Positions 1,057-54,200 of a DNA stretch of 64,000 bases are shown here, piece after piece. The notes below the pieces were generated by a model, which saw only the letters and a list, made by a program, of their open reading frames with translations, ran no database searches and was not told where the DNA came from. Each line of letters begins with the position of its first letter. Within the stretch, counting starts at the first letter, position 1. The DNA comes from an uncultured Klebsiella sp. (GTDB taxonomy: Bacteria > Chloroflexota > Chloroflexia > Chloroflexales > Roseiflexaceae), in NCBI GenBank assembly GCA_964469045.1, contig CAYXXK010000009.1:5012-69011 (forward strand), in the 5' to 3' direction. A program made the position numbers and the translations under genes.

Positions 1057-1071
1057 GCACCTTCCCCCTAT

Positions 1072-2265: not shown

Positions 2266-2379
2266 GCAGATATCTCCATAGCACGGTGATTCTCTTTGTA
2301 GTATATGCTGTCAATATGGGAAAGAGATGAAACGCATGGTATAACCATACTAGTATGTATTTTTGTACGAGATAATTCT

Positions 2380-4447: not shown

Positions 4448-4458
4448 TGACGTCTCCA

Positions 4459-4486
4459 TCATTTAGTTACTCGAGTAACTAAATGA
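4459..4486. promoter_or_regulatory. perfect 28-nt palindrome (14+14) immediately upstream of the MATE gene; candidate operator
   Basis: tcatttagttactc|gagtaactaaatga is read directly from the sequence. It is self-complementary with no mismatch and centred on CTCGAG. Confidence 0.5.
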
Positions 4487-4545
4487 TAAAACACATCTAC
4501 CCTACATGCAAAAAGAGATTTTAATTCGATACATAAGTAATGGGT

Positions 4546-5517: not shown

Positions 5518-6769
5518 CCGTATCCTCAATCAACGTCGCAAACAAATCATCATACGTCTCGGCCCGTCGGATCAAACGCAACTGCCCATCACTCGTATGC
5601 AACACCTCGCCACAGCGCAACTTACCGTTGTAATTAAAGCCCATGGCCCGCCCGTGTGCCCCTGTATCGTGAATCACCATCACGTCGCCAGGATGGACCT
5701 GTGGGAGCTGCCGATTTACCGCAAATTTGTCGTTGTTCTCACACAGCGATCCCACTACATCGTAGTGCTCATCGGTATCATGCGTTGGCGTACCCACCAC
5801 CGTAATATGATGATAGGCCCCGTACATACCTGGGCGCATCAAATCGGCCATCGACGCATCAACACCCACATAATTGCGATACGTGCTCTTGGCGTGGCGT
5901 ACTGTGGTCACCAACATTCCCGCTGGGCCACTAATCACCCGACCACATTCAAGCAATACGCGCGGCGCTGGCATGCCAGTGGGCACGATATATTGATCAA
6001 ATGCCCGCGCCACACCAGCACCCACACGCTCGATATCAACTGGCATATCGTCGGGGTGATAGGGGATCCCAATGCCACCACCGAGATTGATATACTCAAA
6101 TGCAATCCCAAGCTCACGGTAGATATCAGCCGCCAACTGAAAGAGCATGTCAGCCGTGGTCACAAAATAATCGGCATTACGCTCATTCGAGGCAATCATG
6201 GTATGCAACCCAAACCGCGTCACGCCTAATGCTTTGGCCTGCGCATACCCGGCCAACAACTGCGCCTTGGTTGCCCCAAATTTGGCCTCTGCCGGGCGGC
6301 CAATAATCGTATTACCCTCACGCTCAGCACCTGGGTTATACCGGAACGACACCAGCTCGGGCAGTGCCACATCATGTGCCAGCAAGTAATCGAGATGCCC
6401 AACATCATCAAAGTTGATATGCGCACCTAGTTTGAGTGCCATACGGTACTCGTCAATCGGCGTGTTATTCGAGGTGAACATGATGGCATCGCCACGAAGC
6501 CCCAAGCGCCCGGCCATGATTAGCTCAGCAAACGAACTACAATCGAGTCCACATCCTTCTTCGTTGACAATGCGCAAAATCGCCGGGTTCGGTGTCGCTT
6601 TCACGGCAAAATAATTGCGAAAACCAGGCGCCCAGGCAAATGCGCGATTGAGACGGCGTACTGCCTGGCGAATCGTCGTCTCATCATACAAATGAAAGGG
6701 TGTCCTGAATGCGTGCGTCGCCGCAGTAATCACGGCCTCACTCACGGGCAGAGGTTTGGATGTCGTCAT
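5507..6769 (-). CDS. PLP-dependent decarboxylase of the diaminopimelate decarboxylase family (alanine-racemase fold)
   Basis: FAVKATPNP (PLP lysine), GCGLDCSSFAEL, GGGIGIPY and CENNDKF motifs. The exact substrate (DAP versus another amine precursor) cannot be determined by eye. Confidence 0.75.
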   Translation of the reverse strand: MTTSKPLPVSEAVITAATHAFRTPFHLYDETTIRQAVRRLNRAFAWAPGFRNYFAVKATPNPAILRIVNEEGCGLDCSSFAELIMAGRLGLRGDAIMFTSNNTPIDEYRMALKLGAHINFDDVGHLDYLLAHDVALPELVSFRYNPGAEREGNTIIGRPAEAKFGATKAQLLAGYAQAKALGVTRFGLHTMIASNERNADYFVTTADMLFQLAADIYRELGIAFEYINLGGGIGIPYHPDDMPVDIERVGAGVARAFDQYIVPTGMPAPRVLLECGRVISGPAGMLVTTVRHAKSTYRNYVGVDASMADLMRPGMYGAYHHITVVGTPTHDTDEHYDVVGSLCENNDKFAVNRQLPQVHPGDVMVIHDTGAHGRAMGFNYNGKLRCGEVLHTSDGQLRLIRRAETYDDLFATLIEDTDDA

Positions 6770-36147: not shown

Positions 36148-36591
36148 ATGTCAATTACAGCCTATATTGCCGATCAACCACTTGATCGACAGCCAATTAT
36201 CACTCAACTACACGAACAGATTGTCACAAACCTGCCAGATGGATTCGTGGCGACCATACAATACCGCATGATTGGCTACGTGGTGCCACATTCACGCTAT
36301 CCGGCAGGGTATCATGTCAATCCACAAGAGCCCTTGCCATTTATGGCACTGGCAAACCAAAAACACCACATTGCCGTCTACCACCTCGGGTTATACGCCG
36401 ATAGCACGCTGATGGCATGGTTTGTAGCACAACACGAGGCACAAACCAGCACCAAACTCAATATGGGCGCGAGCTGCATCCGTTTTAATCCCAAAAAGGC
36501 TATCCCGTACGACTTGATTGGAGCGCTATCGCGCAAAATGAATATAGACGAGTGGATTGCCCGCTACGAGTCGCGTCGACCCGCATCCTAA
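36148..36591 (+). CDS. DUF1801 (YdhG-like) domain protein
   Basis: Size and the pattern MSITAYIA...LHEQI...MIGY...HIAVYHLGLY...CIRF fit the DUF1801 family as I recall it. Confidence 0.6.
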   Translation: MSITAYIADQPLDRQPIITQLHEQIVTNLPDGFVATIQYRMIGYVVPHSRYPAGYHVNPQEPLPFMALANQKHHIAVYHLGLYADSTLMAWFVAQHEAQTSTKLNMGASCIRFNPKKAIPYDLIGALSRKMNIDEWIARYESRRPAS

Positions 36592-39500
36592 CGCTGGACA
36601 ACAACCGCAACCACCCGTTGATTGTTGGTGGTACTCGTATCAAGCCATGGCTGATTTGCGCGGTCATTTGCACTCCGTACAACGACCGTTACCGATGCAG
36701 TGCCAAGCGAACTCCCAGATATCAACGGAAGTGTGATTACTGATGTGGTATTTGCATTAATCGGGCCAGCAACGACACGCACCAATGGTGTAGCTAGCGT
36801 GAGTGCAATTCTTTTGGGCATACCATCATCAACAAATCTACCACTTGCAGCTGATACCCAGTATTGTCCATCAACGCTGACCTGCATCCGATAGTCACTG
36901 ATATTGCCGTTACTCCCTGCGCCTCGTGGCGTGTAAATAACACTGCCAAGTGCATACCAATTCCCCATATCAATGGTCAACATGTGTGGATGTGCCGATA
37001 CCGCACCACAATAATCCGTGTGCCAATATGTTGCCGTATCGCCATCAAATGCGTTTCGTGCCGGCGCAGATTCACAACTTGTCTCTTGGCTACTTACCTG
37101 TATGGCACGCCACGCACTCTTCGGAATAGCCATTCCCTGAGGGTTGAAGGCGGTCAATTCTGCGACTGCCGTCCATGGCCCATCATTGCCTGCTTCACCG
37201 TCGGCGATTAATCGCATATACCGGTAGCCACTCCGCCATCCTTGACTGTTCGTAGGCATGCGAAACGTACGTGGAAGCGTAGCCTCAATGATGACATTAG
37301 AAACAGCATCAGCGCCAACGTTACGTATCGTCAATGGAATGTCAACGCGCGCATTGCGTCGTGTACTAATCGTGGTTGCTGCAGTCACCGCAACATCAGC
37401 AGTATATGGCGACAGAAACTTCGCCTCAAGTGGGCGAGCTGACTCATACACATACCCGCCTCCGGCCGGAATCTCCCACGCAACCGATGCGTGTGACGTA
37501 CTACTTGCATTTTGGTGCAACAATTCGATGTAATACCGTTGTCCGGCCCTGAGATATATGGATGCGGAGCGTTGGCGACTATCAACAAAGTTCGTAAACC
37601 CACGAAAACTCGTAGCGCTCGTCAAGTCAATAATCGTCACCGAATCGGTTACACGAGCAGACGTACTCAGGCGTAAGCGCGCACTATCATCGCCGGCCAG
37701 CCAAAACCGATAATTACCGCTCACTGGCGGGTGGAGGTACGCTCGTAATCGTTGACCAACAGACGTAGACGTCGTAGATGCCAACTCAAATGTCCCTGTG
37801 CGGATTGTTTGTGTAGTCGGATAGCGCGGGTAATTTGAATGACTCGTCAAACTAGCAATTGTGCTTCCTGCTACTGCATTCCACCGTTCATACAGCACTC
37901 GTCCAGATCCCTGCGTAGCATGGCGTGATTGCGTACCATCAATCAACCATGGACCTGCAATGGCCCGCTGTGCAGTACATGCCGTGATTGTTGCACTAGT
38001 CAGACTAAAGCTCCACTTTTGAAAATGGGGAGCGATATTGGTTTTTGTCACACCACACAACGTTTGCACAAAATAGTTGATTTTTTTAGCATCTGTATCA
38101 AGCGCATCATACGCACTCTGGCTCATATCTCGGTAATGGCGAATCATCTGGGTATACATACCCCAGTTAAGTGTTGGATGTGCGATGCGTACCTGCTCAA
38201 ACAAGGTCAACTGATCAAATGGATCTGCATCTTGCCATTTGTTGGTGATAGACGTGTTATTTAGACGTGCCTGTGCGCGTTTGTAGACATCATCCAACAT
38301 CAACCGCGATGTACCGTGGAGTTTTTCTTCGACATAGAGCGACCACCAGTTGACACTGACTTCGCCACCCATGACATCGGCCCACGCGCCCATCTGGTAG
38401 TTATGACCGATTTCATGCCACACTCCCCACCCTTCAGCACGGCGTGACACATCTGCAGGATCAACCAGCGACCATGCCGTATAGACCATGACCGGAAATC
38501 CATTATGGCCCCAACCAGCACTTATTTGTATATCTTCGGCGATACGTTGCTTGCCTTGTGGTGCAGTATGGGGACGCGCAGCGGTTGGGGATAACCCAGC
38601 CAGCTCATTAATTTTGGTCGATACAGCATCATAATGCGTTGTTAGCTCAACCATTTCAGCATATGTGCGCGTGCGAATTTCGCTTGACGGCGCATGAATA
38701 ACCAACAAATCACTCTCTATTTCGGCAAACGGTACATCCAAATCTCGCCGGGCCAACCACTGTTCTTCTGTAGTCACTCCACGCTTAAAGTACGGTGCTT
38801 GGACAGCATCAGCAATGGTTACCGTAATCGTCGTATTTCGGCTCTGATCCGACCGCAACAGAATAGGGCCACCATACGGTGTGCGGACGTAGTTCACTCC
38901 AGGCTCCAGCTTTACCGTCATGGCAATACGAGGATTACGGCGAAATATGCCGTCACCGACGACATTACCACTATCAGGATAGAGCTCATCAGTATGGACA
39001 CCAAGCTGGGCATACACCTGCGCCATATCAGCACTCGTTGCACCCGACACGGTTATCGTAATAATTTCACTCGGAGCCGCATACAACCCAGTGCTCATCC
39101 AATTTTGTGGCGGCACGTTCATGCGCAGATACCCATGATCACGAAACGCAAGATCAAACACAAACGATTGACTGACGCGATCGGTTTCGCCGACGAGGCC
39201 AGGGAAAATTTCGGGATTACGCACAGCCGACGTCGGAATACTGAATGGCGGTTGTATTCGTGCAACACGATCACGCACTGCATCAAGCGCATAGGCCGAC
39301 GTATCACTCACCACCATTGGATAGGATATCGTTGTTGCGGCGTTGGTCGTCAATGTCGCCAAATCATCAGCGTACCAATAAAACTGTTGATTGTAGCCAT
39401 CATGATTTGGATAGAGCACTAATCGCTTGACATCAACATATACATCAAGTGCAAGATTGGTGGATTGCAAGCGATAGCCATTCACAAAATCAGGGTTTGG

Positions 39501-39842
39501 CTCGGTTTCAATGACATTTGCACCACCATCGCTACAGTCAGCCATATGCAGATCCCAGCTCCATGCAGTAATCTGGGCAATACACAAACTCGCATCGGCA
39601 CGATGTGACCATTGGCCGCTGGCATTCACCGTCCAATACTGCGTATCGAGGCCACGGCACGTGTCAAGGGTAATCTCGCCACCAAGCGACGATCCAGTGA
39701 TACAGAAGCCCGGCAGTGCTCGACTATAGATCATATCGCCACTGCCCGAAGCATGCGTCGATGGCGCTGTCAAAGGCATCCACAAAAGCATCATAACGAA
39801 TACAAGCACAGCCATACGTCGATACCATACATCACGATACAT
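36588..39842 (-). CDS. secreted M60-like (enhancin-type) zinc metallopeptidase with ricin-type lectin, PA14-like and F5/8 type C (discoidin) domains
   Basis: Signal peptide; beta-trefoil QxW motifs (TQYW, QQFYW); HEIGHNYQ zincin motif; PA14-like GNYRFWLAGDDSARLRLS; discoidin-like NAFDGDTATYWHTDY. Start set at 39842 (AGGTGG RBS) to avoid overlap with the upstream gene. Confidence 0.8.
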   Translation of the reverse strand: MYRDVWYRRMAVLVFVMMLLWMPLTAPSTHASGSGDMIYSRALPGFCITGSSLGGEITLDTCRGLDTQYWTVNASGQWSHRADASLCIAQITAWSWDLHMADCSDGGANVIETEPNPDFVNGYRLQSTNLALDVYVDVKRLVLYPNHDGYNQQFYWYADDLATLTTNAATTISYPMVVSDTSAYALDAVRDRVARIQPPFSIPTSAVRNPEIFPGLVGETDRVSQSFVFDLAFRDHGYLRMNVPPQNWMSTGLYAAPSEIITITVSGATSADMAQVYAQLGVHTDELYPDSGNVVGDGIFRRNPRIAMTVKLEPGVNYVRTPYGGPILLRSDQSRNTTITVTIADAVQAPYFKRGVTTEEQWLARRDLDVPFAEIESDLLVIHAPSSEIRTRTYAEMVELTTHYDAVSTKINELAGLSPTAARPHTAPQGKQRIAEDIQISAGWGHNGFPVMVYTAWSLVDPADVSRRAEGWGVWHEIGHNYQMGAWADVMGGEVSVNWWSLYVEEKLHGTSRLMLDDVYKRAQARLNNTSITNKWQDADPFDQLTLFEQVRIAHPTLNWGMYTQMIRHYRDMSQSAYDALDTDAKKINYFVQTLCGVTKTNIAPHFQKWSFSLTSATITACTAQRAIAGPWLIDGTQSRHATQGSGRVLYERWNAVAGSTIASLTSHSNYPRYPTTQTIRTGTFELASTTSTSVGQRLRAYLHPPVSGNYRFWLAGDDSARLRLSTSARVTDSVTIIDLTSATSFRGFTNFVDSRQRSASIYLRAGQRYYIELLHQNASSTSHASVAWEIPAGGGYVYESARPLEAKFLSPYTADVAVTAATTISTRRNARVDIPLTIRNVGADAVSNVIIEATLPRTFRMPTNSQGWRSGYRYMRLIADGEAGNDGPWTAVAELTAFNPQGMAIPKSAWRAIQVSSQETSCESAPARNAFDGDTATYWHTDYCGAVSAHPHMLTIDMGNWYALGSVIYTPRGAGSNGNISDYRMQVSVDGQYWVSAASGRFVDDGMPKRIALTLATPLVRVVAGPINANTTSVITLPLISGSSLGTASVTVVVRSANDRANQPWLDTSTTNNQRVVAVVVQR

Positions 39843-39864: not shown

Positions 39865-40980
39865 TTATTGCATGCGTGCAAGCAACTCAAACACGATGGG
39901 TTGCATACGCTCAATGCCCCACATCAACCACCCGCTGTACCACAACCATCCCACCGAGCCAAACAAAAGAACAACGACGATACCACGCCGCGATCGACGA
40001 GGCATAGTCACTACAGTTGCATCGTGAAGTGTATCAACCCGCTCATGCAAGCGATTGATTTCAATGCGCATATCTGCCGTAATTTGTTGCTGTGCGGCCA
40101 ACACACGATGCACTTTTTCTAGGGTAAGAAGCGTTTGCGTATCAGGACCTTTGGGGACAGGCAAGGCGGCAATATAGTGTTGCAGTTGATCGATCCGCTC
40201 TTCAAGCATACGCCGACCATCCACAACGGCTTCTGCGGTACCACTGACAAGCAGCAGTTGATCCTGCCGTAATTGGCTCACCTGCAGTTGCAACGTCTCT
40301 AGATGCCGTTGAGTTTGCTGTGTCTCTTGTTGATGTGTCGAAATACTCGCCTCTATGTCGAGAATCTGTTGTGCATATTGCGTGTACTGCTCCTTTTGAC
40401 GTACTGCATCTGCATGTTGTTGCTGTGCCTGTTGGATTGCTGTCAGCTGAGACGCATATTCAAGGCTTTGGGCACGAGCATACACGAGTTGGAGTTGAAT
40501 GCGTCGCTCTGCTGACTGATAGTGTTCCGGCAAAAGTGCCACCATCTGCATCATACGCGCAATCGAATCAATAATCATGGCGCCCGTCAATTGCCCCTGA
40601 TGATTCAACGCATTGCGCCGTAGTCGAATCAAACGCAACTCTTTCAATGGCGGTACAAACGCCGGTCGCACATCGACTTGCGCGGATCCGTTCGGCGCAA
40701 ACAGTACCGATGCATACCCAGTACGACCAGTATGCAACCCGCCATCGTGTGTCATCAGGTGAATAAGCGCCAAAAAATCAGGCCGTGGTTGACCATCAAC
40801 AAAATCCACATAAATCGCCGTGCGCTCACGCTTCGCTAGGCTATGCAAATGACTACTAAGTCGCTCGCCAAAATGCGCACGCATATGATCAAGTACATAC
40901 GGCGCATAGGCCGTCTGAAACAATTCGATTGCCTGTGCCATATACAATCGTTGGAGGGGCACTTCGGTAGCATGAACCAT
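39865..40980 (-). CDS. Swt1-like HEPN domain protein with long Gln-rich coiled coil and a C-terminal TM anchor
   Basis: N-terminal helical domain ending LKELRLIRLRRNALNHQ (Rx4H at 40600-40617); about 170 aa of heptad-like Q/L-rich sequence; C-terminal hydrophobic helix GIVVVLLFGSVGWLWYSGWLMWG. ATG at 40980 has GGAGG upstream. Confidence 0.65.
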   Translation of the reverse strand: MVHATEVPLQRLYMAQAIELFQTAYAPYVLDHMRAHFGERLSSHLHSLAKRERTAIYVDFVDGQPRPDFLALIHLMTHDGGLHTGRTGYASVLFAPNGSAQVDVRPAFVPPLKELRLIRLRRNALNHQGQLTGAMIIDSIARMMQMVALLPEHYQSAERRIQLQLVYARAQSLEYASQLTAIQQAQQQHADAVRQKEQYTQYAQQILDIEASISTHQQETQQTQRHLETLQLQVSQLRQDQLLLVSGTAEAVVDGRRMLEERIDQLQHYIAALPVPKGPDTQTLLTLEKVHRVLAAQQQITADMRIEINRLHERVDTLHDATVVTMPRRSRRGIVVVLLFGSVGWLWYSGWLMWGIERMQPIVFELLARMQ

Positions 40981-41059
40981 TTCGTATACCTCCATTGCGC
41001 AGTATGCGTATCATAGCACGGCATCATATGCGATTGCACCTGACCATTTGAGATGCGTC

Positions 41060-41098
41060 GCTCCCTCCACGCCGTAGTGAACGACGCATGGAGGGAGC
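41060..41098 (-). other. stem-loop downstream of rmuC (no T-tract)
   Basis: 10-bp stem gctccctcca / tggagggagc, with an alternative 6-bp pairing tgcgtc / gacgca. Confidence 0.45.
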
Positions 41099-41128
41099 AA
41101 CAACACGGATAGGCGAACGCATCACACA

Positions 41129-42211
41129 TCAGTCATTGATTTGTTTAATCTGAGTGATCTCAACTTCAGGCTCAGAAGGTATCAAAACCTCGATTGACTC
41201 GGGGCGCAGTTGATTGATTTTCTCGAGTTGTGGCACCACACGCGTGTTCCACGAGCTAGCCATTGCGTTGAGCGACTTATTGAGTTTGGCCAGATTGGTG
41301 CCAATATCGTCGTAATGCCCCATAAACGTCTTGAGTCGTTTAGTAAGTTCTTTGATCGAATCAAGCAGGCTCAAGGCGTTGGCAACCTCTTGACGTTGGC
41401 GCCAGCTGAAGTTTGCGGTACGCAACAGGGCCATCAACGTACCCGGTGTGGCAATGATGATATTGCGACTCAACGCAAAATCGACAATAGAATCGACATC
41501 ACTACGCCCCTCGTCCGCAAACGCCAAACTCCCCTCTACCTGGATGTACATCACGGTAAACGGCAGACTATTATTATCTCCGTGATAATTGCGTTTCACC
41601 AAGGCCATCACATGATCTTTGATGGCTTGATACTGCTGTCGCGCCAGTTCGGTGCGAGACTTTGCGTCAGGTGCTGCAACACCCTCAACATAGGCATTCA
41701 GCGAGATTTTGGCATCGACATAGACAACCGAATTATTGGCAAATTTAATTGCCATATCGGGGCGCCCCTCAGCAGTCCCACGTTGCACATCAAAATCAAC
41801 ATACTCACTCATACCACTCAACTCCACCAGCCGGCGCAACTGCAGCTCTCCCCAACTACCCATTTGTTTGTTGTTGCGCAAGGCACTGTCGAGCTTTTGT
41901 GTCTCACGACTAATTTGCTCACTGGCAGTTACCACTTGACGAATATTCTCACCGAGCTGCCCGAGTTTTTCGGATTGCGCCACTTGCAACTCACCCATAC
42001 GTGACTCGATACGTTGCACCTCTTGGCTGATGCGCACAATCGTCTCATCTAACATGGCCTTGGTGGTTGCACTTGTTTCATCTAATACCTCAGTGGCAAT
42101 ACTTTTGGCCTGTTCTTGGCGCTTGCCGTAATACAACATGGCTGCGCCTGCTGACAATGCAGCCCCCAACATAAAGCCAATCCCATACGCAAATGTCGGT
42201 TCCACACACAT
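41129..42211 (-). CDS. rmuC: DNA recombination protein RmuC (N-terminal TM helix and coiled coil, C-terminal PD-(D/E)xK-like nuclease domain)
   Basis: MGSWGELQLRRLVELSGM...VDFDVQ...RPDMAI...VYVDAKISL...FTVMYIQVE matches the RmuC family pattern. Confidence 0.85.
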   Translation of the reverse strand: MCVEPTFAYGIGFMLGAALSAGAAMLYYGKRQEQAKSIATEVLDETSATTKAMLDETIVRISQEVQRIESRMGELQVAQSEKLGQLGENIRQVVTASEQISRETQKLDSALRNNKQMGSWGELQLRRLVELSGMSEYVDFDVQRGTAEGRPDMAIKFANNSVVYVDAKISLNAYVEGVAAPDAKSRTELARQQYQAIKDHVMALVKRNYHGDNNSLPFTVMYIQVEGSLAFADEGRSDVDSIVDFALSRNIIIATPGTLMALLRTANFSWRQRQEVANALSLLDSIKELTKRLKTFMGHYDDIGTNLAKLNKSLNAMASSWNTRVVPQLEKINQLRPESIEVLIPSEPEVEITQIKQIND

Positions 42212-42280
42212 TTCCTTTCACAATAATTACCTATTACGTCACCAAAAATATTGTAGCATATATTTTACATGTACTACATT

Positions 42281-42308
42281 AAAAAAAATAGGGGAGCTAC
42301 AGCTCCCC
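42281..42308 (-). terminator. rho-independent terminator closing the HEPN-like / zinc-ribbon-TM gene pair
   Basis: Perfect 8-bp stem ggggagct / agctcccc (42291-42308). On the minus strand it is followed by T8 (42281-42288). It sits in a region of about 27 percent GC. Confidence 0.7.
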
Positions 42309-42470
42309 TAAAAATTTCATCGCATTACAATCAATAAAATTGATGTTTATTTAAAAAAATTATATGAGCGAAAAATGATAGTTTTGTGAGTAATTTTTAG
42401 CAGTTTATTTGCACATTTCCCCGCACACATATCAAACATTTTCTATGCACACGCATAATCTATGACAGGG

Positions 42471-43010
42471 TCATTCACGTGCGTATTCCGCCAAGATGCG
42501 TGCATAATCGCGCGCACGAAATGCGGTAAGTGTGGCAAGAAGTTGGAGTGCGGTCATTAGAAATCCAACAGAAGTGAGCATTGGCCAAGTATGCACTGCT
42601 GGTGCCCAGGCCAACTGCCAGTTACGCCACAGACTTATCGTAAGCACACACGCAACGCCCAAACATGCAAGAGCACTAATAAACGCAACTACTCCCAAAA
42701 ATTGATAGAACGACGCTTGTCGCATCAACACCCGAACAGTTGGGCGCGCAATAGGATGTACCTCACCATGCACATTCGGCTGTGGACGCCTAAAGAGCGA
42801 CAGATAGTCATCATCAACGCGATCCTTGACAGGTGGGATGACTACTAACTGCTGACCACTCAATGCCGGGGCATCGTCACGGATCGCAGTAACCGGCACA
42901 TCGATGATGTGCGCATGCACTAGTGATGTATGACATGTTGCACATACGACATTCGTCAAGGCGCATACACGCTTGCAGTTAGGGCACACTTTGTGCCGAA
43001 TTTTGGGCAT
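42471..43010 (-). CDS. hypothetical zinc-ribbon protein with two C-terminal TM helices
   Basis: CPNC-x10-CATC at the N-terminus and two hydrophobic helices (FLGVVAFISALACLGVACVLTISLW; MLTSVGFLMTALQLLATLTAF). ATG at 43010 with GAGG upstream is preferred over the GTG at 43043. Confidence 0.55.
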   Translation of the reverse strand: MPKIRHKVCPNCKRVCALTNVVCATCHTSLVHAHIIDVPVTAIRDDAPALSGQQLVVIPPVKDRVDDDYLSLFRRPQPNVHGEVHPIARPTVRVLMRQASFYQFLGVVAFISALACLGVACVLTISLWRNWQLAWAPAVHTWPMLTSVGFLMTALQLLATLTAFRARDYARILAEYARE

Positions 43011-43105
43011 CAACACACCTCTGCACATACGCTCTATTGCCACATGCGCTGGTGCGCAATGACATGCCAGACACCCCTAACACAAAAAAATAGCCCATCA
43101 GTATG

Positions 43106-44161
43106 CTATACATCGGTGGTAGTAATGGTGATACCCCGTACATTCGCTTTGTCGAACATGACTTTGGTGACACGACAATACCCACGAAACACCACATCAG
43201 ATTGACCTGACACTCTTTGGAACAGTGGAACTGGCATGGTATGCTCACCAATAACGCCTTGCCAATCATCAAGCAACTTCACAGGGTTCTCAAGCATAAC
43301 CATACCCTCAGCACCTATGGCTTGTACAGGTGCCACCACATAACAAAATCGTCTATTTACCATTGGCATGTCGAAACGAATACTGCCGGCGAGGCGTTGA
43401 TATACCTCAAGCCGTGAAAGAGATGCACCACGCACAACGCCATCGAGTTGAAGCGCAATTCGTTGTGCATACAGTCCATCATCTGCATACAGTGCTCGTT
43501 CGCTCGCAAGTCGCCTCGTCATTTTGTTACGCATATTCTGCATATGTGAATACAATCGTCGCAGGAATCCCAACACACCATCGCTAAAATGTGCCGAGCG
43601 AAACATGGCATCATGAACGAGTGCATTGCGCACTTTGGTGAATTGTTCAAGCAGATGGAAGGTGTGCACATCAACATCATGACTCCACAGCAAAAAGCGA
43701 CAGATGCGCAATGCTTCGGTCACATCTCGTTTGAGTTTGTATTTTTGCTGTGGATCATTCTGGATTACTTCGTAAATTTCAGCTTCTTCGGCAGCCGTCA
43801 ATGGTTGCGTCCCATTAATCACGGCCATGCGCTGACGATACATGGCCCGCAAGCGATTTTCGATGAGAGAGCAGAGCAGCATGACGGCACCCATGCGGGC
43901 AAGCATGCTGTCAGATGCGAAGGTCAATGCATCATCCTGCATCGCGTCATCTTCTATAGTTTGTTCGGACGGAACGATTTGACGAATTTGTTTCATTGCC
44001 GATTCAAGATCAACATACACTGCGCTCGTATCAACTGTTTTGACCACGCCGATGATACGTTCAAAATCAACACTGGGTATCAGTGGGTATTTTTGTTTTG
44101 TGTGCTCATAATTTTGAAATGTAGCTTCAACAAGCTGGAAGCGTACGTGATTGTTTGACAT
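43106..44161 (-). CDS. hypothetical protein with a central HEPN-like domain (Rx4H) and an unassigned C-terminal domain
   Basis: Helical region LLCSLIENRLRAMYRQ ... LLEQFTKVRNALVHDAMF (R178-H183 encoded at 43613-43630). GAGG RBS and a TATAAT box (44191-44196) lie upstream. Confidence 0.55.
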   Translation of the reverse strand: MSNNHVRFQLVEATFQNYEHTKQKYPLIPSVDFERIIGVVKTVDTSAVYVDLESAMKQIRQIVPSEQTIEDDAMQDDALTFASDSMLARMGAVMLLCSLIENRLRAMYRQRMAVINGTQPLTAAEEAEIYEVIQNDPQQKYKLKRDVTEALRICRFLLWSHDVDVHTFHLLEQFTKVRNALVHDAMFRSAHFSDGVLGFLRRLYSHMQNMRNKMTRRLASERALYADDGLYAQRIALQLDGVVRGASLSRLEVYQRLAGSIRFDMPMVNRRFCYVVAPVQAIGAEGMVMLENPVKLLDDWQGVIGEHTMPVPLFQRVSGQSDVVFRGYCRVTKVMFDKANVRGITITTTDV

Positions 44162-44371
44162 GGCAGAACCTCATAGCATGGTACACAATCATTATACTGC
44201 CGTGTCACGTTATGGGTATGTTGAATTTGGCTGATACATGTCACACCGACACACAAGCAGTGCAATTAATCACGGGGCGGTGTATGCCATCACCTCAATG
44301 CCCATGAGTACGTCGCTCGATAGCAATAATCAAAACCTACCTGATGTGCAATACATCTCACACGTGCGATA

Positions 44372-44407
44372 GCACCACGTTCATACCAGTCGTTGTGAAC
44401 GTGGTGC
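44372..44407. other. perfect 12-bp stem-loop between the PARG operon and the HEPN-like operon
   Basis: gcaccacgttca (44372-44383) / tgaacgtggtgc (44396-44407) with a 12-nt loop. No flanking T-tract on either strand. Confidence 0.5.
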
Positions 44408-44481
44408 AACTTGACTGACAGTATGTAGTCAAAGCATAGTCACGGCAACAAGATGCAGTACAAGTCACATGCCTGTCCCCC

Positions 44482-45366
44482 CTATCCACCAAACACGCGC
44501 CCATCAAAATACCGCATAAACGCCTGATAATTCAGTGGAGGATCATACATATCAGCCACCGCAAAATCAATCGCCACAAACCGACGCATATCAACCACAT
44601 CCATCATGTCATCCATAATTTGTGCAATATCTTCGGGATTATTGCCAAATGCACCACATCCCCATGCCCCCAAAATCAAAATGTCGGCGTCGAGTGTCGT
44701 CGCCACCTGAAAGACTTTTTGAGTGCGATATTGCATGTGCAATCCTATCTCACCCACACGGTCTGGCATATACCGGTGCACAGCATTCGCGTGCACTGCT
44801 GCACTCGTAATCACATCGGCATGCCACGGCGTGTCGATGAATTGACCATCATGATGTCGAAAGAACGGTACCGTCGGCGAAACAATCACCGTGTCGTTAT
44901 AAAACGGATTCCGATGATGTGATGTATCAAAGTAGAACTCATCATCGCGCAGCGAGTGGACCAGCGTTGATGCGCGCGCCAATGACTCCTCTTGTGCCTG
45001 TGAACCATTCAACCAACCACCACCTGGCGAAACGGCACTCGCTAGATTCAAAATGGCCACGCGAAATCCTTGCATCACCCGCGCCTCAGCTACTGCCAAT
45101 GTCGTCTGGTTGTACACAAATGTGTGCACCTGTGCATGCCGAGGAGCGCTCATCATTGGCGTGACACCGGGTCGGTATACGACCTGCCCCTGCGTCGCTG
45201 CATCGCGCGCCGCCCGAATATCAACTTGAGTCCCATGCGCATTTGTGTACCAGCCGCGCGCGGTAATCGCCTGCGTCTCGCGACACATGGTGGCCGATGC
45301 ATGCCGGGGCATAATTAAGGTGTCGAGCGTCAACGTGGGGAGCATCAGTTTCTCTGGGGTTTTCAT
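44482..45366 (-). CDS. bacterial-type poly(ADP-ribose) glycohydrolase (TIGR02452 / DUF2263 macrodomain family)
   Basis: PARG signature GGG-WLNGSQA-QEE (encoded at 44986-45024), plus ILNLASA and LILGAWGCGAFGN motifs. ATG at 45366 has AAGGAG upstream. Confidence 0.85.
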   Translation of the reverse strand: MKTPEKLMLPTLTLDTLIMPRHASATMCRETQAITARGWYTNAHGTQVDIRAARDAATQGQVVYRPGVTPMMSAPRHAQVHTFVYNQTTLAVAEARVMQGFRVAILNLASAVSPGGGWLNGSQAQEESLARASTLVHSLRDDEFYFDTSHHRNPFYNDTVIVSPTVPFFRHHDGQFIDTPWHADVITSAAVHANAVHRYMPDRVGEIGLHMQYRTQKVFQVATTLDADILILGAWGCGAFGNNPEDIAQIMDDMMDVVDMRRFVAIDFAVADMYDPPLNYQAFMRYFDGRVFGG

Positions 45367-45379
45367 TGCATTTCTCCTT

Positions 45380-45874
45380 TTAGAGTCTCCAATTACCGGC
45401 TGCAATCCACGCCGCCAAATCAAACTGATGTGATTTCTTTACGGCCGGATTGATGCGTGTTTGTGCCGCATGTTGTATCAACCGCTGGTGTGCTGGGCGT
45501 ACAATCGCCATCGCCGCCACTGCATCACCAGGCTCAGCAAATAATGCTACAGATCCGGGTACCGATGCATATGCGCCGACTTCACCTTCCTCAGCAAACA
45601 TACCCGTCAATGTAATCTGCCAATCGGTCACCGCATCGATTTGATTAAACACACCTTCATCCACCACGATGTTGATTTCGTTGCGAGTAAATATCAATAC
45701 CTCAATCATGCCGACATTCAGCCGTAACGCATCACGGTTACATGTCAGCGTCCATTTGTCTGGTGCAATCTGTTGTGCATATGCCATGCTCTCTGCGAGC
45801 ATGCACAATAATCCGGCACGCATGCGTGCATCAGGAAGATGTTTTTGGACGAATTGAAAGACATCGGTGGCCAT
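45380..45874 (-). CDS. hypothetical protein (164 aa), first gene of the PARG operon
   Basis: ATG at 45874 has AAGGA upstream. Its stop is 13 nt before the PARG start. I recognise no domain. Confidence 0.55.
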   Translation of the reverse strand: MATDVFQFVQKHLPDARMRAGLLCMLAESMAYAQQIAPDKWTLTCNRDALRLNVGMIEVLIFTRNEINIVVDEGVFNQIDAVTDWQITLTGMFAEEGEVGAYASVPGSVALFAEPGDAVAAMAIVRPAHQRLIQHAAQTRINPAVKKSHQFDLAAWIAAGNWRL

Positions 45875-45981
45875 ATGTTTTCCTTTCTGAGATACTTCTA
45901 CGCACAATGACAACACCATCATTCATCGTGTGGCTATGTAAAAACCAATTCCACGCACGTATGTGCAAAGAACTATGATTG

Positions 45982-46698
45982 TTATGGCATTTGTGCAAGT
46001 AATCGGCCAATCTCTTTGTCAAACTCAACTACTTCTACGACCCAGTCGTACACCACACGGCGGGATGCGGCACTCGGTGAGCCAAACGCAATCTCGACAC
46101 GCATCTCAACAAACGCAGGAATCATCGTATCGCGCATCAATTTGAGGTAATACGCTATTTCAGTTGGTTGATCCGCACAGGTAGGCACTCGCATACCATT
46201 CAAACCAGCGAACACTTCGTTGACGGCGCCTTCGCTCGTCCCCGGCAAGTATATTTCTTGCACGTAATATGCCATGACATTGGCCAATACCCCAGCATCT
46301 TTGCGCATTTGGGTAGCTTTTTGTATGAATGGCGCAAGCTCTTTTTTGCATGCAGAAATACGATCAACTGTAGCCGTCGGCACCGGTGTCTCTGTTGGCA
46401 CACGTGTCTTTGTTGGAGGTATTGTCTCCGTCGGCACCGGTGTGTCGGTCGGAACCACCGTCTCCGTTGCCGTCGCTGTCGGAATCATCGTCTCCGTTGC
46501 CGTCGCTGTCGGAACCATCGTCTCCGTTGCCGTCGCTGTCGGAATCATCGTCTCTGTTGGGGCCAACGTGGCAGTAGCTGTTGTCGTGGGCACGCGCACG
46601 ATTGCCGTCATCCGCTCTTGGGCTTCAGGAGTCAATAAAATCACCATCATCATCACGACTGTTAGCACAATAATCGTACGCATATTGCTGCTCTTCAT
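45982..46698 (-). CDS. secreted or membrane-anchored protein with Thr/Pro-rich tandem-repeat linker and unknown C-terminal domain
   Basis: N-terminal hydrophobic helix, a (TATATETM[IV]P)n linker, and a C-terminal domain of about 125 aa containing two Cys. Confidence 0.65.
   Translation of the reverse strand: MKSSNMRTIIVLTVVMMMVILLTPEAQERMTAIVRVPTTTATATLAPTETMIPTATATETMVPTATATETMIPTATATETVVPTDTPVPTETIPPTKTRVPTETPVPTATVDRISACKKELAPFIQKATQMRKDAGVLANVMAYYVQEIYLPGTSEGAVNEVFAGLNGMRVPTCADQPTEIAYYLKLMRDTMIPAFVEMRVEIAFGSPSAASRRVVYDWVVEVVEFDKEIGRLLAQMP
46451..46560. repeat. 30-nt in-frame tandem repeat, about 3.7 copies
   Basis: ggaa(c/t)ca(c/t)cgtctccgttgccgtcgctgtc repeats head to tail and encodes TATATETM(I/V)P units on the minus strand. 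Confidence 0.85.
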
Positions 46699-46822: not shown

Positions 46823-47152
46823 ATGTCAACGAATGAATCGATCTACACCGCCCTCTCAGTATCATTCATTGGGGTAATTGCCGATCTGCGCGATGCAGAC
46901 AAGTCAGTGCAACAGGCGCGTCGTGTGCGTGACAAGGCCCAACGCGACGCTATCAAGGCCATCAGGCTCCACCGCAGAGCGATTGCGATTGCTGGTGGAC
47001 CAAACGCCATGGCCGACCATCATCTCGCGTTAAGTCAACAACACGTCAAAGAGACGCAAGAGGCGTACGAGCGCGCTCTTGCGTCAGCGATTAAGACGTA
47101 CCGGTGGGTAATACAACAATGGCTCGATCAGCAGCAGACGACTACGCTCTGA
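46823..47152 (+). CDS. hypothetical helical protein (109 aa)
   Basis: AAGGAAAG RBS before the ATG at 46823. Charged helical sequence with no recognised domain. Confidence 0.5.
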   Translation: MSTNESIYTALSVSFIGVIADLRDADKSVQQARRVRDKAQRDAIKAIRLHRRAIAIAGGPNAMADHHLALSQQHVKETQEAYERALASAIKTYRWVIQQWLDQQQTTTL

Positions 47153-48509
47153 CCACCTCCACCTTATATTGTTGGGTCATGGCGCCATCAGCCGCAACCA
47201 CACGCAGCTCGAGCGTTGCGCTTTCAACCAAAAATGGCTGGCATGACAGATGTGACACGCCGTTAATGGTCAGGCTCGTATAATCAGTTGCGGTTACTAC
47301 CGGACTAATCGTGACCGCCCCTGTAGCAACAATCGTGTACGTCACCTGTAATGGTGTAAATGCGGGTGACAAGACACCACCGTGTACTACGATATTGGCG
47401 AGTGTTGCAATCCGTATCGACGGTAGCGACAAGTACCGCTCTTGGGGCACGTTAATCGCCACCCAATCAGCATCTGTGATGCGGTTGCCACGCTGGACCC
47501 ACCAGCCACCGCGTGGGCGCAGTGAAGGCGTCGGAGTCACCCGATCATCAACCACATCTTGCACCAACGCCAGCAAACTATCAAGATATGCCGCATCAAG
47601 TGGACCATCGTTATGTCCACCATATATTACATCGACACGACCACGCATCAGTGCATCGTATCGACGTAGTGACGACAAATAATAGTCAATCGGAGATGCA
47701 CTTGGGATTTGCATCCATAGTGCGTGTGGTACGGTAGGCGTATTACTACCAAATGCATCACCAGCAATCAACAAACGGCGCGTCGCCTCATAAAAGACCA
47801 TACTCCCATGTGAGTGCCCCGGTACATGCAAGACGTCAAATCGCCAATCACCTACATCAAATACCATGCCAGCGTGGATATCAATAATACCGCTCAAATC
47901 CAACTGGAGTCCCATTCGCTCACCAAATGCGCGTACCATCGGCAAATCAAGATGACTCATATACACGTCATACGAATCTTCGAATTGCCCAAGTGCCGCC
48001 ACATGATCAGGATGGCCATGCGTGATACAGACAGTTAATGGTAGATCGCCGATGAACTGTTGTACAAGTGTACGCAACTGCCCATTTCCCAACCCTGCAT
48101 CAAACAACAAAGCGCCCTTTTTGCCTTTTACCAGATACATGTTGGTGTCATCGTAATCACGAATTTGCCAAAACCCCGGCAACACTTCGTGATAAATGTA
48201 TGCGTCCGTATCGCGTCGGTCAATCGTATAGGCAAATGTCACCACATCACTCGGCGCGCAATGAGGAGCTGTTGCTTGCGCTGTCACCACATAGTCCATA
48301 CGGACTCCTTTGGTGCCGTGGTTAATTGCGGCCAACATCGGCAAATCATCCGGTGTACATATCGCACTATCGGCCGACGGCACTGTTCCATCAAGGGTGT
48401 AGCGAATCACAGCATCAGGAGTAGCACACAGGAGTGTAATTTGTTGGGCCACAGCAAATATGCCAGGGGGTGGGAACGCTGTCGGTGTAGCAGTTTTGGG
48501 ATTCATCAT
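47142..48509 (-). CDS. MBL-fold metallo-hydrolase flanked by Ig-like accessory domains (chitobiase-C/FN3-associated-like N-terminus, cadherin-like beta-sandwich C-terminus)
   Basis: Metal motif ITHGHPDH and a downstream HVPGHSHG. N-terminal ITLLCATPDAVIRYTLDGTVP; C-terminal LSPAFTPLQVTYT...YKVEV. Confidence 0.8.
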   Translation of the reverse strand: MMNPKTATPTAFPPPGIFAVAQQITLLCATPDAVIRYTLDGTVPSADSAICTPDDLPMLAAINHGTKGVRMDYVVTAQATAPHCAPSDVVTFAYTIDRRDTDAYIYHEVLPGFWQIRDYDDTNMYLVKGKKGALLFDAGLGNGQLRTLVQQFIGDLPLTVCITHGHPDHVAALGQFEDSYDVYMSHLDLPMVRAFGERMGLQLDLSGIIDIHAGMVFDVGDWRFDVLHVPGHSHGSMVFYEATRRLLIAGDAFGSNTPTVPHALWMQIPSASPIDYYLSSLRRYDALMRGRVDVIYGGHNDGPLDAAYLDSLLALVQDVVDDRVTPTPSLRPRGGWWVQRGNRITDADWVAINVPQERYLSLPSIRIATLANIVVHGGVLSPAFTPLQVTYTIVATGAVTISPVVTATDYTSLTINGVSHLSCQPFLVESATLELRVVAADGAMTQQYKVEVVRA

Positions 48510-51285: not shown

Positions 51286-54200
51286 ATGGAATCGTCACGT
51301 CATATACGAGGCATTATGCGTGTTTGGTTACTTTTGACATTAATTGTTAGTATGTTTACTCCCACCTGGCTCACCCCCCACCCCTCCGCAGAAAGTCACC
51401 CCCTCGTTCGCAAACTCGACACCGTTGAGACAGACATGGCAGCACATGCCGTCGGCAGCGAGTGGCACAATCCGAATGACACACCAATGGTGGTCAACTT
51501 GGGGCAGACGTCACCAGATATGCCTGTTGCCGGTATGGATCAATGGTTGAGTGCCCGCGGTCAATCAATTGAACCACGTGCAAATGTCGTTGGCACAAAA
51601 AAATACCTCGTCATGCGCGTCTATGCGCAAGACCAAGCTGCAACCAGTTATTACGCCAAAGATTTGGCTGATGAGGGCGTGACTGGTCTCACCCGCAGTG
51701 TTGAAGAAGATATTATGAAGCCGCTCAAACAACTCTTCACCGATACTACATATGGCAAAGTCACACTCGCATGGGACATCACCGACCTCTATCAACTCCC
51801 AAAAAGTCGCAGTTACTATATCAACGACTGCAAAAGTGTCGATGCTAGCGGTACAGTCATCGGAGAATCCGGCGACATGAGTTTGGCATGTGGCGATGGG
51901 CTCAGCGAAACCAACAAAACACAACGCATCTACAGCGATGCCGTCAGTGCCATCCCAAGTGGGTACGACTTCACAGATTATGTGGGTATTGTAGTAATCT
52001 TCAACGAAACCAATCTTACACGCATGTATCGTGGCGTCGGTGGCCGTTGCAATACGGATACTACCGCATTACCTGGTGTGGGGAGAAACACCGTATATGG
52101 CTGTGTCAACATTACCGAAAATCCTGTTGAAGGCGATGGTGTGACGTTTGGACGTCTAGGCCACGAAATGGCGCATGCGCTCCAGCAAGGCGACGTACGA
52201 CACCCTAGTTTCTACGCAAATAAATATGAACTCCTTGACGCAAGCTATCCTGGTCAGATTGGTGCTTTTGCCAAACAAGATGACCAAGACTTCCCCGGGT
52301 GGTTGCCAGATGCGCAATACATTGACATCAGCGATGGCAAAACCACCGACCGCACCTGTTTGCGTGTGCTCGAGCGAGTCCCTGATGCGCGGCCACAAGT
52401 CATTCGTGTCCAAATTACGGGATCACGGTACTACTTGATATCAGCCCGTCACCGGATTCTTGGTGACGAATTATCTTGGAACGCAGCTGGCATCCCAGAC
52501 GAGGGCATTCTCGTCGAACGCGTCAACGAAAGCCCCGGCAAGGATGCAGCTGGCAATCAGCTCCCATGGGTGACGGTCATACCCAAAAGCGGTACTTGGA
52601 ATTTATTCAAAAAAGGCGACAATAACATCTTAATTGGCGATAACGTCTATTTGACGGTCCAGTCAAATGCTCAGAGTGGCATCAGCGATGGCGAAATCTA
52701 CTGTGTGCGCGTTACGTTTGGGCCAGCTGTCAACGAACCTGACGTTGCTATTCGCCCATGGCGTGAGGCGCCTGGCAACACTTACGAAACCACCGACATC
52801 TGGGTGGATAGCCCCTTCAACGGGTACGATGTGTATCGCAACGGTATGTGGAACGACCTTTCTGGCGTACCAGTCCCTAGAGGCAACGGCGACGCACCGG
52901 GAGTTGACGCAGTAAATCGCCTCTATGCACGCGTCCGCAACGTCGGCACCATTGATGCAACCGACATCACCGTCCGCTTCAAGGTATCAACTCCCATCGG
53001 TGTGGGAGTCAACAACGATACAAACTGGGTAGAGGTAGGTACGGTCGACAAAACCACTTTCCCTGCCTTAGCCAGCTTGCCCGCTGGTGGTTATACCGAC
53101 GTCTACATTGAATGGACTCCTAGTGTTGAGCTTACTGACGAACAAATCGAGGCTGGCATATTCGAGTATCACACCTGTGTCCGAGTCACAATAGATGACG
53201 TTGCAGGTGAGGTCACGACCGGCAATCAAGACGGCGACCAAGAACAAGAGAACATTCGCGAGTTTGAGGCCACACCAGTCAGAAGCAATATCTACCGCCA
53301 CGACTTCAACCTGCATAACAACGACATGACCGCTCCAAAGACCTACACACTTAACCTCGAGGGTAACTTACCACCAACGTGGGAGGTGACGCTCAACGAT
53401 GGTGATCCATCAATTACGGTGCCGGCTAACAGTAGTGTCACCATTCCAATTACAGTCACTGCCAATAGTAGTGCTGTCATCGGCACCAAATTTAGCTTGC
53501 AAGTCAACGCAAGTAGCGTGCGCATGTTGTTGACCGATAACATTGATGCTAACGGCGACGGCGTCGTTGATAGTGGCAGGATCCCAGCTGATGAAGGCGA
53601 TGCCGCCCGATTTGAAGGAGAAAACGTGCATCGCGACGAGAATGTCCAAGGTGGTTTTGACTTTGACATTCGGGTACTTGCCCCCACCGAAATCGCATGT
53701 CGGCCATACGGGCGCGGTGCACGTGTCGAGGTACAAGGTGAACTCAATGGATTCGAGGGCATTCACCAAGCAGGTACCCCGTTGCGTGCCTATGCACAAA
53801 TCTTTGACAGCGCCAAAAACCCGATTCCTCTTGATGATCGATCTGTCAGCGATATTGGTTCGAATGGCGCATTTCAGATGAACTTTAGCGCACTCACCCA
53901 AGACAAAACTGCTACCTTGCCCGCATTTGTGCGTTGTATATTCCCTGGCACCCATCTTTTGGCCAGTAGTACCACTGGATTTGTTCCTATTGACACAACC
54001 AATTTTGCACCAACACTCACCCCAGAGCCATGGGGCGGCAGCCAGTTCCATTTTGGACTCAGTCTTAACAGCTTTTTGCCACCAACACATATCTACTACG
54101 ATCGGGTCAGTCTGACAAGCGCCACAACCAACCAGTTCAAATGTAGTGTAGGGCGCTGCCCACTATTGGTTGATGGTCAGCACGGTCGTGGTGTACAGTT

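Follow-up and report, generated by a model that had tools for sequence, protein, structure and literature searches.

This work concerns six neighbouring genes of a 64-kb stretch of contig CAYXXK010000009.1 (hereafter the window) and, among them, the pair g4-g3, a candidate immune module. The list of open reading frames (ORFs) of the window places the six genes within 39865-45922, all on the minus strand, and the same six genes were called on a public copy of the contig (ENA ERZ4216102 NODE_138, 78 kb), with slightly shorter starts. They are transcribed in the order g6, PARG, g4, g3, RmuC and g1, and the gene of an M60-like secreted peptidase follows (Table 1). A preliminary description of this DNA had recognized six co-oriented genes, two of them coding for RmuC and for a poly(ADP-ribose) glycohydrolase (PARG); the ORF list and the independent gene calls agreed on the first point, and the profiles PF02646, PF10021 and TIGR02452 on the second. 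The products of g1, g3, g4 and g6 had no significant match in Pfam, NCBIfam, PADLOC profiles or PDB sequences. The same description had counted two HEPN-motif proteins and had read the whole block as a candidate conflict or defence island.

Table 1. Genes and features of the block and its surroundings, with protein identity to related loci (L numbers designate contigs of related Chloroflexota/Roseiflexaceae metagenome loci; aa, amino acids; nt, nucleotides)
Feature	Position	Strand	Description	Identity to L007, L026 or L028
g6	45380..45874	-	164 aa; ORF and gene call; function not assigned by any library match	73%
g5 (PARG)	44482..45366	-	294 aa from ATG at 45366; microbial-type poly(ADP-ribose) glycohydrolase	76%
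Stem-loop	44372..44407	-	in PARG-g4 spacer
g4	43106..44161	-	351 aa; variable N-terminus, helical HEPN-like domain, beta-rich SRA/PUA-like C-terminal domain	57%
g4, helical HEPN-like domain	43490-43906		residues ~86-224
g4, motif R178-N179-A-L-V-H183	43613..43630	-	RNALxH
g4, beta-rich domain	43115-43429		residues ~245-349
g3	42471..43010	-	179 aa; N-terminal Cys4 zinc ribbon, two C-terminal hydrophobic helices	38%
RmuC-g3 spacer	42212-42470
Terminator	42279..42310	-	3' of g3
g2 (RmuC)	41129..42211	-	360 aa; hydrophobic N-terminus	93-94%
Hairpin	41058..41102	-	past RmuC stop codon
g1	39865..40980	-	371 aa; candidate Swt1-like HEPN head, coiled coil, C-terminal membrane anchor	54%
g1, motif RRNALNH	40600-40617		RNALxH
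M60-like secreted peptidase (context gene)	36588..39842	-	1084 aa; PF13402 E=1.4e-45; ricin, PA14, F5/8-C domains	76%
238-aa protein	45982-46698	-	tandem repeats at 46351-46589
Metallo-beta-lactamase-fold hydrolase	47142-48509	-
LamG protein	51286-55809		1507 aa
tRNA	30879		sole tRNA of the window
GH77				96%
Aldo-keto reductase				97-98%
GH5				89%

The block is made of four transcription units

The block consists of four units: g6-PARG, g4-g3 followed by a terminator, RmuC followed by a hairpin, and g1-M60. The intrinsic terminator 3' of g3, which sits in the RmuC-g3 spacer, has a 9-bp stem (GGGGAGCT-loop-AGCTCCCC) and a T8 tail (-16.9 kcal/mol, z=-4.1); the same hairpin with its T8 recurs in L004 and L029 and is found in a degenerate form in L011. 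About 30 nt past the RmuC stop codon lies a hairpin of -34.2 kcal/mol (z=-6.5) with no T tract, which is likely the RmuC terminator. Hairpins of -25 to -29 kcal/mol, unrelated in sequence each time, were found at the same position in L004, L007, L011, L029 and L032. As the terminator of g3 and the hairpin after RmuC both recur in orthologous loci, RmuC is bracketed by terminators. The third structure, a stem-loop in the 320-nt PARG-g4 spacer, has a folding energy of -21.7 kcal/mol (z=-3.9) that none of 200 shuffled sequences equalled; no T tract comes after it either, and it is likely where the g6-PARG unit ends. Spacing is short within the outer units: g6 and PARG are 13 nt apart and are probably co-transcribed, and the M60 gene, 22 nt from the end of g1, is probably co-transcribed with g1 and outside any defence function.

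The terminator after g3, the two stem-loops and a division into at least three or four transcription units had all been put forward in the preliminary description, together with a possible co-transcription of g1 with a secreted protease. The structures proved far more stable than shuffled sequence, four units were found, and the co-transcription is probable. Only one part of its statement that unusually AT-rich spacers separate the genes was retained: the RmuC-g3 spacer has a GC content of 0.297, compared to 0.519 for the window, but the remaining spacers range from 0.39 to 0.53, and AT-richness throughout the block was rejected. Over the region as a whole, the count of terminator-like and promoter-like sites was not above that of shuffles. 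As a separate observation, the hairpins after RmuC keep their structure and not their sequence, and may represent a terminator style of the lineage that dispenses with the U tract.

The block occupies a fixed position in a Chloroflexota lineage

On contigs fetched through the relatives of g4 and g1, the order g4-g3-RmuC-g1-M60 was found in eight other loci, namely L004, L007, L011, L026, L028/L031 (from RmuC onward), L029/L030 and L032. A comparison with related genomes had been proposed at the outset as the way to tell an island from core DNA; it showed the block to be syntenic in 8 of 9 lineage loci. In the same proportion of loci (8 of 9) g3 directly follows g4, and the adjacency of g1 and M60 is kept in L004, L007, L026, L028 and L029. 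The loci have their outer flanks in common: a GH5 cellulase and a LamG protein of 1500 aa make up one of them, GH77 and an aldo-keto reductase the other. Among 5.8 billion proteins, clustered at 90%, g4 and g1 each have 16-17 relatives only, and all named relatives come from metagenome-assembled genomes (MAGs) of Chloroflexota, Roseiflexaceae or Chloroflexaceae. The related genomes are old relatives, with saturation at synonymous sites extending even to GH77 and the aldo-keto reductase. One of the contigs, CAYZZI010000033.1 (GCA_964482795.1; L010/L004), is titled 'uncultured Klebsiella sp.'; it has the gene order and the protein identity (74-91%) of Chloroflexota loci, and the label is probably wrong.

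Hallmarks of a mobile island were looked for in the window. As the preliminary description had remarked, there is no integrase and there are no meaningful flanking repeats; no tRNA is present next to the block either, the sole tRNA of the window being located ~9 kb away. Pfam, PADLOC and gene calls revealed no known defence gene near the block in the window, PADLOC reporting a generic RmuC-domain similarity only, and Pfam annotation of the 20 kb around the block returned glycoside hydrolases, a peptidase and a metallo-beta-lactamase (MBL)-fold protein. The block does not cluster with known defence systems, and neither variable presence nor boundaries formed by an integrase, a tRNA or repeats were observed for it.

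Changes in gene content are local. Upstream of g4 in L032, genes for an RCC1-repeat protein, a kinase-like protein and a PP2C phosphatase stand in place of PARG (420-6016), and in L004 an M50 peptidase gene is inserted between PARG and g4. In L008 (1105-3675), the interval from g4 to g1 holds, instead of g3 and RmuC, the gene of an 856-aa RCC1-repeat protein whose C-terminal part matched nothing in Pfam; M60 is missing from this locus. The RCC1-repeat, kinase-like and PP2C genes beside g4 in L008 and L032 point to local gene flux around g4.

The 6-kb stretch is best explained as a neighbourhood of four independent units that is passed on vertically in the chromosome of a Roseiflexaceae-like lineage of freshwater Chloroflexota. 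The proposal that the six genes constitute a conflict or defence island was not supported, since the block is syntenic between the same metabolic flanks, carries no mobile hallmarks and has no defence neighbours. Given the synteny across the lineage, what was found for the whole block is therefore largely the pattern, syntenic and lineage-wide, that the preliminary description itself had opposed to an island.

Genes of the block diverge at very different rates

The protein identities of Table 1 fall from RmuC to g3 within the same block, and over the relatives they range from 91 to 94% for RmuC, from 76 to 86% for PARG and from 45 to 56% for g1. As dS is above 1 or undefined owing to saturation, comparisons were restricted to dN. 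Against L007, dN is 0.03 for GH77, 0.05 for RmuC and 0.175 for PARG, and reaches 0.36 for g4, 0.40 for g1 and 0.65 for g3. At the same chromosomal positions, the non-synonymous divergence of g4, g3 and g1 is thus ~7-20 times that of RmuC and GH77. Where dN/dS was measurable it was 0.1-0.2, which indicates purifying selection overall. The fast divergence of g4, g3 and g1 is compatible with an arms race and also with relaxed constraint. Secreted proteins of the neighbourhood also evolve fast: identity is 70-81% for M60 and 54% for the 1507-aa LamG protein, compared to 96% for GH77.

g4 is predicted to combine a HEPN-like domain with an SRA-like C-terminal domain

A full HMMER search with a g4 profile retrieved 17 representatives of the family among 1.84 billion proteins. 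The motif R178-N179-A-L-V-H183, located in the helical domain, is of the Rx4H type and conforms to the Rx4-6H motif of HEPN proteins, in which a polar residue often comes after R. HEPN domains are up-down bundles of four helices and act as metal-independent endoribonucleases through a composite site formed in the dimer. Across 23 members of the family, the most distant with an identity to g4 of only ~17-28%, no substitution is seen at R178, N179, H183, A185 or R211; in the combined alignment, an E-x-R pair belonging to an earlier helix is likewise widely retained. The family member P0049, which matched the g4 profile with E=1.4e-6 in the search of the 1.84 billion proteins, scores 27 bits against DUF4145, above the Pfam gathering score of 23.1, and matches a HepT-like model with E=0.01. 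P0036 and P0045 weakly match HEPN_RiboL-PSP (E=0.008 and 0.046, respectively), and weak matches to DUF3644 were also seen among the members other than P0049. At the level of sequence profiles, the link of g4 to HEPN families is transitive, via P0049 to DUF4145, and its HEPN assignment is putative. The wider family profile gave zero matches to PDB sequences.

The AlphaFold2 (AF2) model of g4, built from 15 sequences and of medium confidence (predicted local distance difference test 70.5, predicted template modelling score 0.72), is all-helical over residues 86-224 and has a C-terminal domain rich in beta structure. The top Foldseek match of g4 in the PDB is the SRA domain of SUVH5 (3q0d, E=0.048, prob 1.0, target-normalised TM-score 0.50) and in the independent viral library BFVD the first-ranked match is likewise to SRA, in a ScoMcrA-like protein (E=0.015, prob 1.0); SauUSI and AspBHI are also among its PDB matches. 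The modelled structure is suggestive of an SRA-like C-terminal domain. Full-length Pfam scans listed no match to SAD_SRA.

A scan of viral contigs found no relatives of g4 and thus yielded no evidence of a phage origin. No nucleotidyltransferase-like gene adjoins g4 or g1, so that the gene pair of HEPN-MNT toxin-antitoxin systems is not present at either gene.

Three distant relatives of g4 are found in defence islands

A type III Mod/Res pair (PADLOC MTase_III E=3.5e-167, REase_III E=5.7e-173) lies 22 nt upstream of the gene of P0036, which is itself followed by an overlapping gene for a small membrane protein; an NsnB/PDC-M55A-like ATPase, a GmrSD-like protein and a UvrD plus PDDEXK pair are encoded nearby. 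The gene of P0038 is flanked by a GmrSD-like gene and by BrxL/PglZ. In the Roseiflexaceae MAG contig CANJHS010000027.1 (L014:8342-10166), two tandem g4 paralogues are placed divergently beside BrxF, BrxC (DUF6079) and BrxHI of an operon resembling type 3 bacteriophage exclusion (BREX); the shorter of the two, with 234 aa, lacks the C-terminal beta domain, and the longer has 344 aa. With their type III restriction-modification (R-M), BREX-1 and BREX-3 surroundings, three of the five distant g4 contexts are therefore unmistakable defence islands. These contexts rescue part of the original island proposal, for g4 and, by adjacency, for g3, and not for the six-gene set. Between the GmrSD-like gene and P0038 there is also an ORF of 142-149 aa (L025:2490-2939) that looks EVE/PUA-like by eye and has no Pfam or PADLOC match.

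g3 is a zinc-ribbon membrane protein and g1 a second HEPN candidate

In five orthologues of g3 that are only 40-44% identical, the cysteines C9, C12, C23 and C26 (CxxC...CxxC) are invariant and the hydrophobic segments are kept. Its early designation as a zinc-ribbon transmembrane protein is upheld by these invariant cysteines and by the two conserved hydrophobic helices.

The head of g1 (residues ~1-160), which contains the RRNALNH motif, is followed by a coiled coil of ~165 residues, as indicated by the secondary structure of the AF2 model, and by the C-terminal anchor WLWYSGWLMWG. In the alignment of g1 relatives, R126, R127, N128, L130, H132 and the WLWYSGW anchor are invariant. HEPN_Swt1 is the sole Pfam family that matches the g1 head: four of six sequences tested matched it with E=0.0036-0.11 (13-18 bits, compared to a gathering score of 27.5), and in one orthologue the match covers model positions 1-111 of 115. 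Foldseek searches with g1 returned long coiled-coil noise only and no fold match. DUF4407 appeared in g1 relatives below threshold, over the coiled-coil and transmembrane part, and was set aside as compositional. From these profile similarities, g1 is a probable second, weaker HEPN candidate, a tail-anchored coiled-coil protein with a Swt1-like head, and may be a second membrane-proximal RNase.

The statement that two HEPN-motif proteins are present was accepted in part. RNALxH occurs twice in the six-frame translation of the window, in g1 and in g4, R-N-x3-H is invariant in both families, and the only profile similarities of the two proteins are to HEPN families. The two proteins show no detectable homology to each other, and a relation as paralogues was rejected with an hhalign probability of 0.4% despite the common RNALxH.

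RmuC, PARG and g6 are neighbours by synteny

RmuC matches PF02646 with E=7e-67 and 226 bits over positions 3-285 of 291, as expected of a member of the RmuC family, and its domain also resembles the PADLOC RT-RmuC model (E=1e-30). Its low dN and a conservation comparable to that of GH77 and the aldo-keto reductase substantiate the early caveat that RmuC can be a housekeeping protein; it is an ordinary, strongly constrained, monocistronic core-like nuclease of the lineage with its own terminators.

PARG is assigned to the microbial-type enzymes by PF10021 (E=1.5e-36) and TIGR02452 (E=8.8e-66). A GGG-x7-QEE motif was read in the ORF translation, in the segments PGGGWLNGSQAQEE and GGGWLNGSQAQEE; we take GGGWLNGSQAQEE (GGG-X6-8-QEE) to be the bacterial PARG signature. 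The g6 family is found in Chloroflexota MAGs only, and a g6 homologue, 50% identical, stands alone without PARG in a Chloroflexaceae MAG (L015-L018). PARG and g6 are separable from the rest of the block. The g6-PARG unit is an ADP-ribose-removing enzyme with a lineage-specific partner and shows no sign of a conflict function. RmuC, PARG and g6 are best read as neighbours by synteny. The reservation that the grouping may be coincidental was largely right for these three genes.

Two further genes lie beyond g6. The 238-aa protein, probably secreted or anchored, combines a hydrophobic N-terminus with a linker rich in Thr, Pro and Ala. Tandem repeats of 30 nt and 18 nt (TATATETM[VI]P units) code for this linker, and the C-terminal part of the protein is 83-87% identical in relatives. 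The MBL-fold hydrolase is unusual and extracellular-looking, with an N-terminal domain like the C-terminal domain of chitobiase/hexosaminidase and a cadherin-like domain at its C-terminus.

Discussion

The account that we hold to be probable, with modest confidence, is that of a fixed neighbourhood of four units in which g4-g3 is the one credible candidate for an immune (abortive-infection) module and g1 a second, weaker HEPN candidate. In such a module, the SRA-like domain of g4 would bind either nucleic acid at a modified base or a nucleotide that arises in modified form during infection. Binding of the ligand would let the HEPN domains dimerise into an active RNase with R178, N179 and H183; this RNase would cleave cellular or phage RNA, and the infected cell would be arrested. 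The role of g3 would be to tether or gate the activity of g4 at the membrane. g1 could be an independent membrane-tethered HEPN RNase or, equally, a servant of the co-transcribed M60 peptidase, and RmuC, PARG and g6 would be bystanders.

Several results weigh against this account. Firstly, g4 itself has no direct HEPN, SRA, PADLOC, NCBIfam or PDB sequence-model match (none at E<=0.1 in Pfam), no HEPN structure was retrieved by Foldseek with the full-length model of g4 or with g1, and the SRA matches are weak (E 0.015-0.05), with a TM-score of at most 0.5. Secondly, two other distant g4 relatives (L021 and L023) are in short, uninformative contexts, and in the lineage of the window g4-g3 has no defence neighbours and does not change its position, as would be unusual for a defence system. 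Thirdly, fast evolution could reflect relaxed constraint, and overall dN/dS is well below 1. Finally, the great stability of the order g4-g3-RmuC-g1, kept in 8 of 9 loci, means that RmuC may be functionally linked to its neighbours.

A more specific claim, which we advance tentatively and regard as possible rather than probable, is that g4-g3 represents an undescribed, Chloroflexota-restricted immune module, in which an SRA-like reader of modified DNA or nucleotides is fused to a DUF4145-like HEPN RNase and associated with a zinc-ribbon membrane partner, and which is chromosomally fixed and diversifies in place. Such a module would couple a sensor resembling those of type IV restriction to an abortive-infection effector that cuts RNA. 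In its boldest version, g1 and the conserved RmuC would act with g4-g3 as one locus.

Four other explanations were weighed. The most serious, which we nevertheless judge rather unlikely, holds that nothing in the block is immune: g4, g3 and g1 would be lineage-specific housekeeping or regulatory proteins under weak constraint, involved in membrane-proximal RNA processing or M60 export, and the defence neighbours of distant relatives would be coincidental. It accommodates the fixed syntenic position amid metabolic genes without defence neighbours in the window, the dN/dS of 0.1-0.2 where measurable, the equally fast secreted M60 and LamG neighbours and the two of five distant contexts that are uninformative. 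It does not readily explain why three independent distant relatives of g4 are found in strong islands (type III R-M, BREX-1 and BREX-3) or why the family is patchy and rare (17 in 1.84 billion) and includes tandem paralogues. Moreover, in prokaryotes a HEPN protein with an intact Rx4H is overwhelmingly a conflict-system RNase (PMC3710099).

That the six genes form one island or multi-component system, with two HEPN RNases, an RmuC DNase, membrane proteins and an ADP-ribose eraser, appears improbable. The genes are on one strand and tightly packed, the order g4-g3-RmuC-g1 is kept in 8 of 9 loci, and RmuC domains can be defence effectors, as in ShdA of Shield (PMC10270631); the PADLOC RT-RmuC model matches the RmuC domain (E=1e-30). 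However, the block is split into four units with conserved terminators, and RmuC is housekeeping-like, with neighbours that evolve 7-13 times faster at non-synonymous sites. In addition, PARG and g6 are separable, L008 retains g4 and g1 without RmuC and g3, distant g4 relatives occur without g1, RmuC or PARG, and mobile-element hallmarks and known defence neighbours were not found.

Even less probable is a Shield-like arrangement, in which the membrane RmuC would be the conserved effector and the diversifying g4-g3 upstream and g1 downstream its sensors or regulators. RmuC has a hydrophobic N-terminus as in ShdA (PMC10270631), its adjacency to g3 and g1 is stable, and the Shield subtypes show a similar pattern, in which the core is conserved and the accessory proteins vary. 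Yet ShdA is defined by its defence-island context, with housekeeping RmuC explicitly excluded (PMC10270631), and the context here is metabolic; terminators lie on both sides of RmuC, L008 has no RmuC between g4 and g1, and elsewhere the g4 family occurs without RmuC. A DarT/DarG-type toxin-antitoxin pair with g6 as writer and PARG as eraser, which the 13-nt spacing and the pairing kept in several loci might evoke, was rejected as very improbable, because g6 resembles no ADP-ribosyltransferase, nor anything else, in Pfam, NCBIfam, PADLOC or PDB and occurs alone without PARG in a Chloroflexaceae relative, both proteins being moreover fairly conserved (73-86% identity).

If the g4-g3 pair is immune, as in the account that we favour, it adds an SRA-type reader of modified bases driving a HEPN RNase, a combination that was not found described as a tested system in the libraries and literature searched. 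To our knowledge, few of the defence systems tested so far were taken from Chloroflexota, the phylum from which this one would come. The pair would also illustrate that a defence-type gene can stay at one site of the chromosome and diversify there rather than move on mobile elements. For the scanning of genomes, co-orientation and a suggestive list of domains (RmuC, PARG, HEPN) are insufficient to call an island; rates and synteny in relatives split core-like genes from candidate conflict genes inside one 6-kb block.

Comparison with known systems

DUF4145, a family of the HEPN clan, is typical of R-M and McrBC operons and is in some cases joined to zinc-ribbon and transmembrane modules in a single protein (PMC3710099). 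The abortive-infection protein RAZR has DUF4145 as its catalytic RNase (PMC13017515). The g4-g3 pair resembles RAZR by the Rx4H of g4 in a helical domain, by the family member P0049, which reaches the DUF4145 threshold, and by the zinc-ribbon element of the candidate module. In RAZR, however, an N-terminal zinc finger and DUF4145 are on one polypeptide, an architecture that g4-g3 does not have, the zinc ribbon being here on g3, a membrane protein in its own right; g4 lacks a zinc finger, is predicted to have an additional SRA-like domain at its C-terminus and is too divergent for a direct DUF4145 match.

RmuC and g1 also have described counterparts. Like ShdA of Shield, RmuC is a membrane-anchored RmuC-domain protein, but here it is core-like and monocistronic and has no defence-island context; neither a defence island nor ShdB-E partners, by which Shield is recognized, accompany it (PMC10270631). 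Shield has been reported only in Pseudomonas (PMC10270631). g1 is similar to the Swt1/Abi2 clade of HEPN proteins in that HEPN_Swt1 is the sole Pfam similarity of its head and RRNxLxH is invariant; it differs in that all its scores are below the gathering score and that it has no fold match. No described example was found of its architecture, a HEPN head followed by a long coiled coil and a C-terminal membrane anchor.

In two respects g4 is similar to the modification-dependent (type IV) restriction enzymes with an SRA domain (ScoMcrA, SauUSI and the AspBHI/MspJI family): SRA domains, theirs among them, are the best structural matches of its C-terminus, and distant g4 relatives adjoin GmrSD-like type IV enzymes. 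The partner domain of g4, in contrast, would be an RNase-type HEPN rather than an HNH, PD-(D/E)xK or phospholipase D-type DNase, and the structural scores are marginal. There is a parallel in logic with PUA-Cal-HAD and related predicted systems, which likewise join a PUA-superfamily reader of modified nucleotides to a toxic effector. HEPN is among the effectors fused to a PUA-like domain that have been listed computationally (bioRxiv 10.64898/2026.01.15.699771). As PUA-like readers fused to HEPN are already listed, the kind is known, and the g4 family, with its predicted SRA-like and HEPN-like domains, would therefore be a variant of it.

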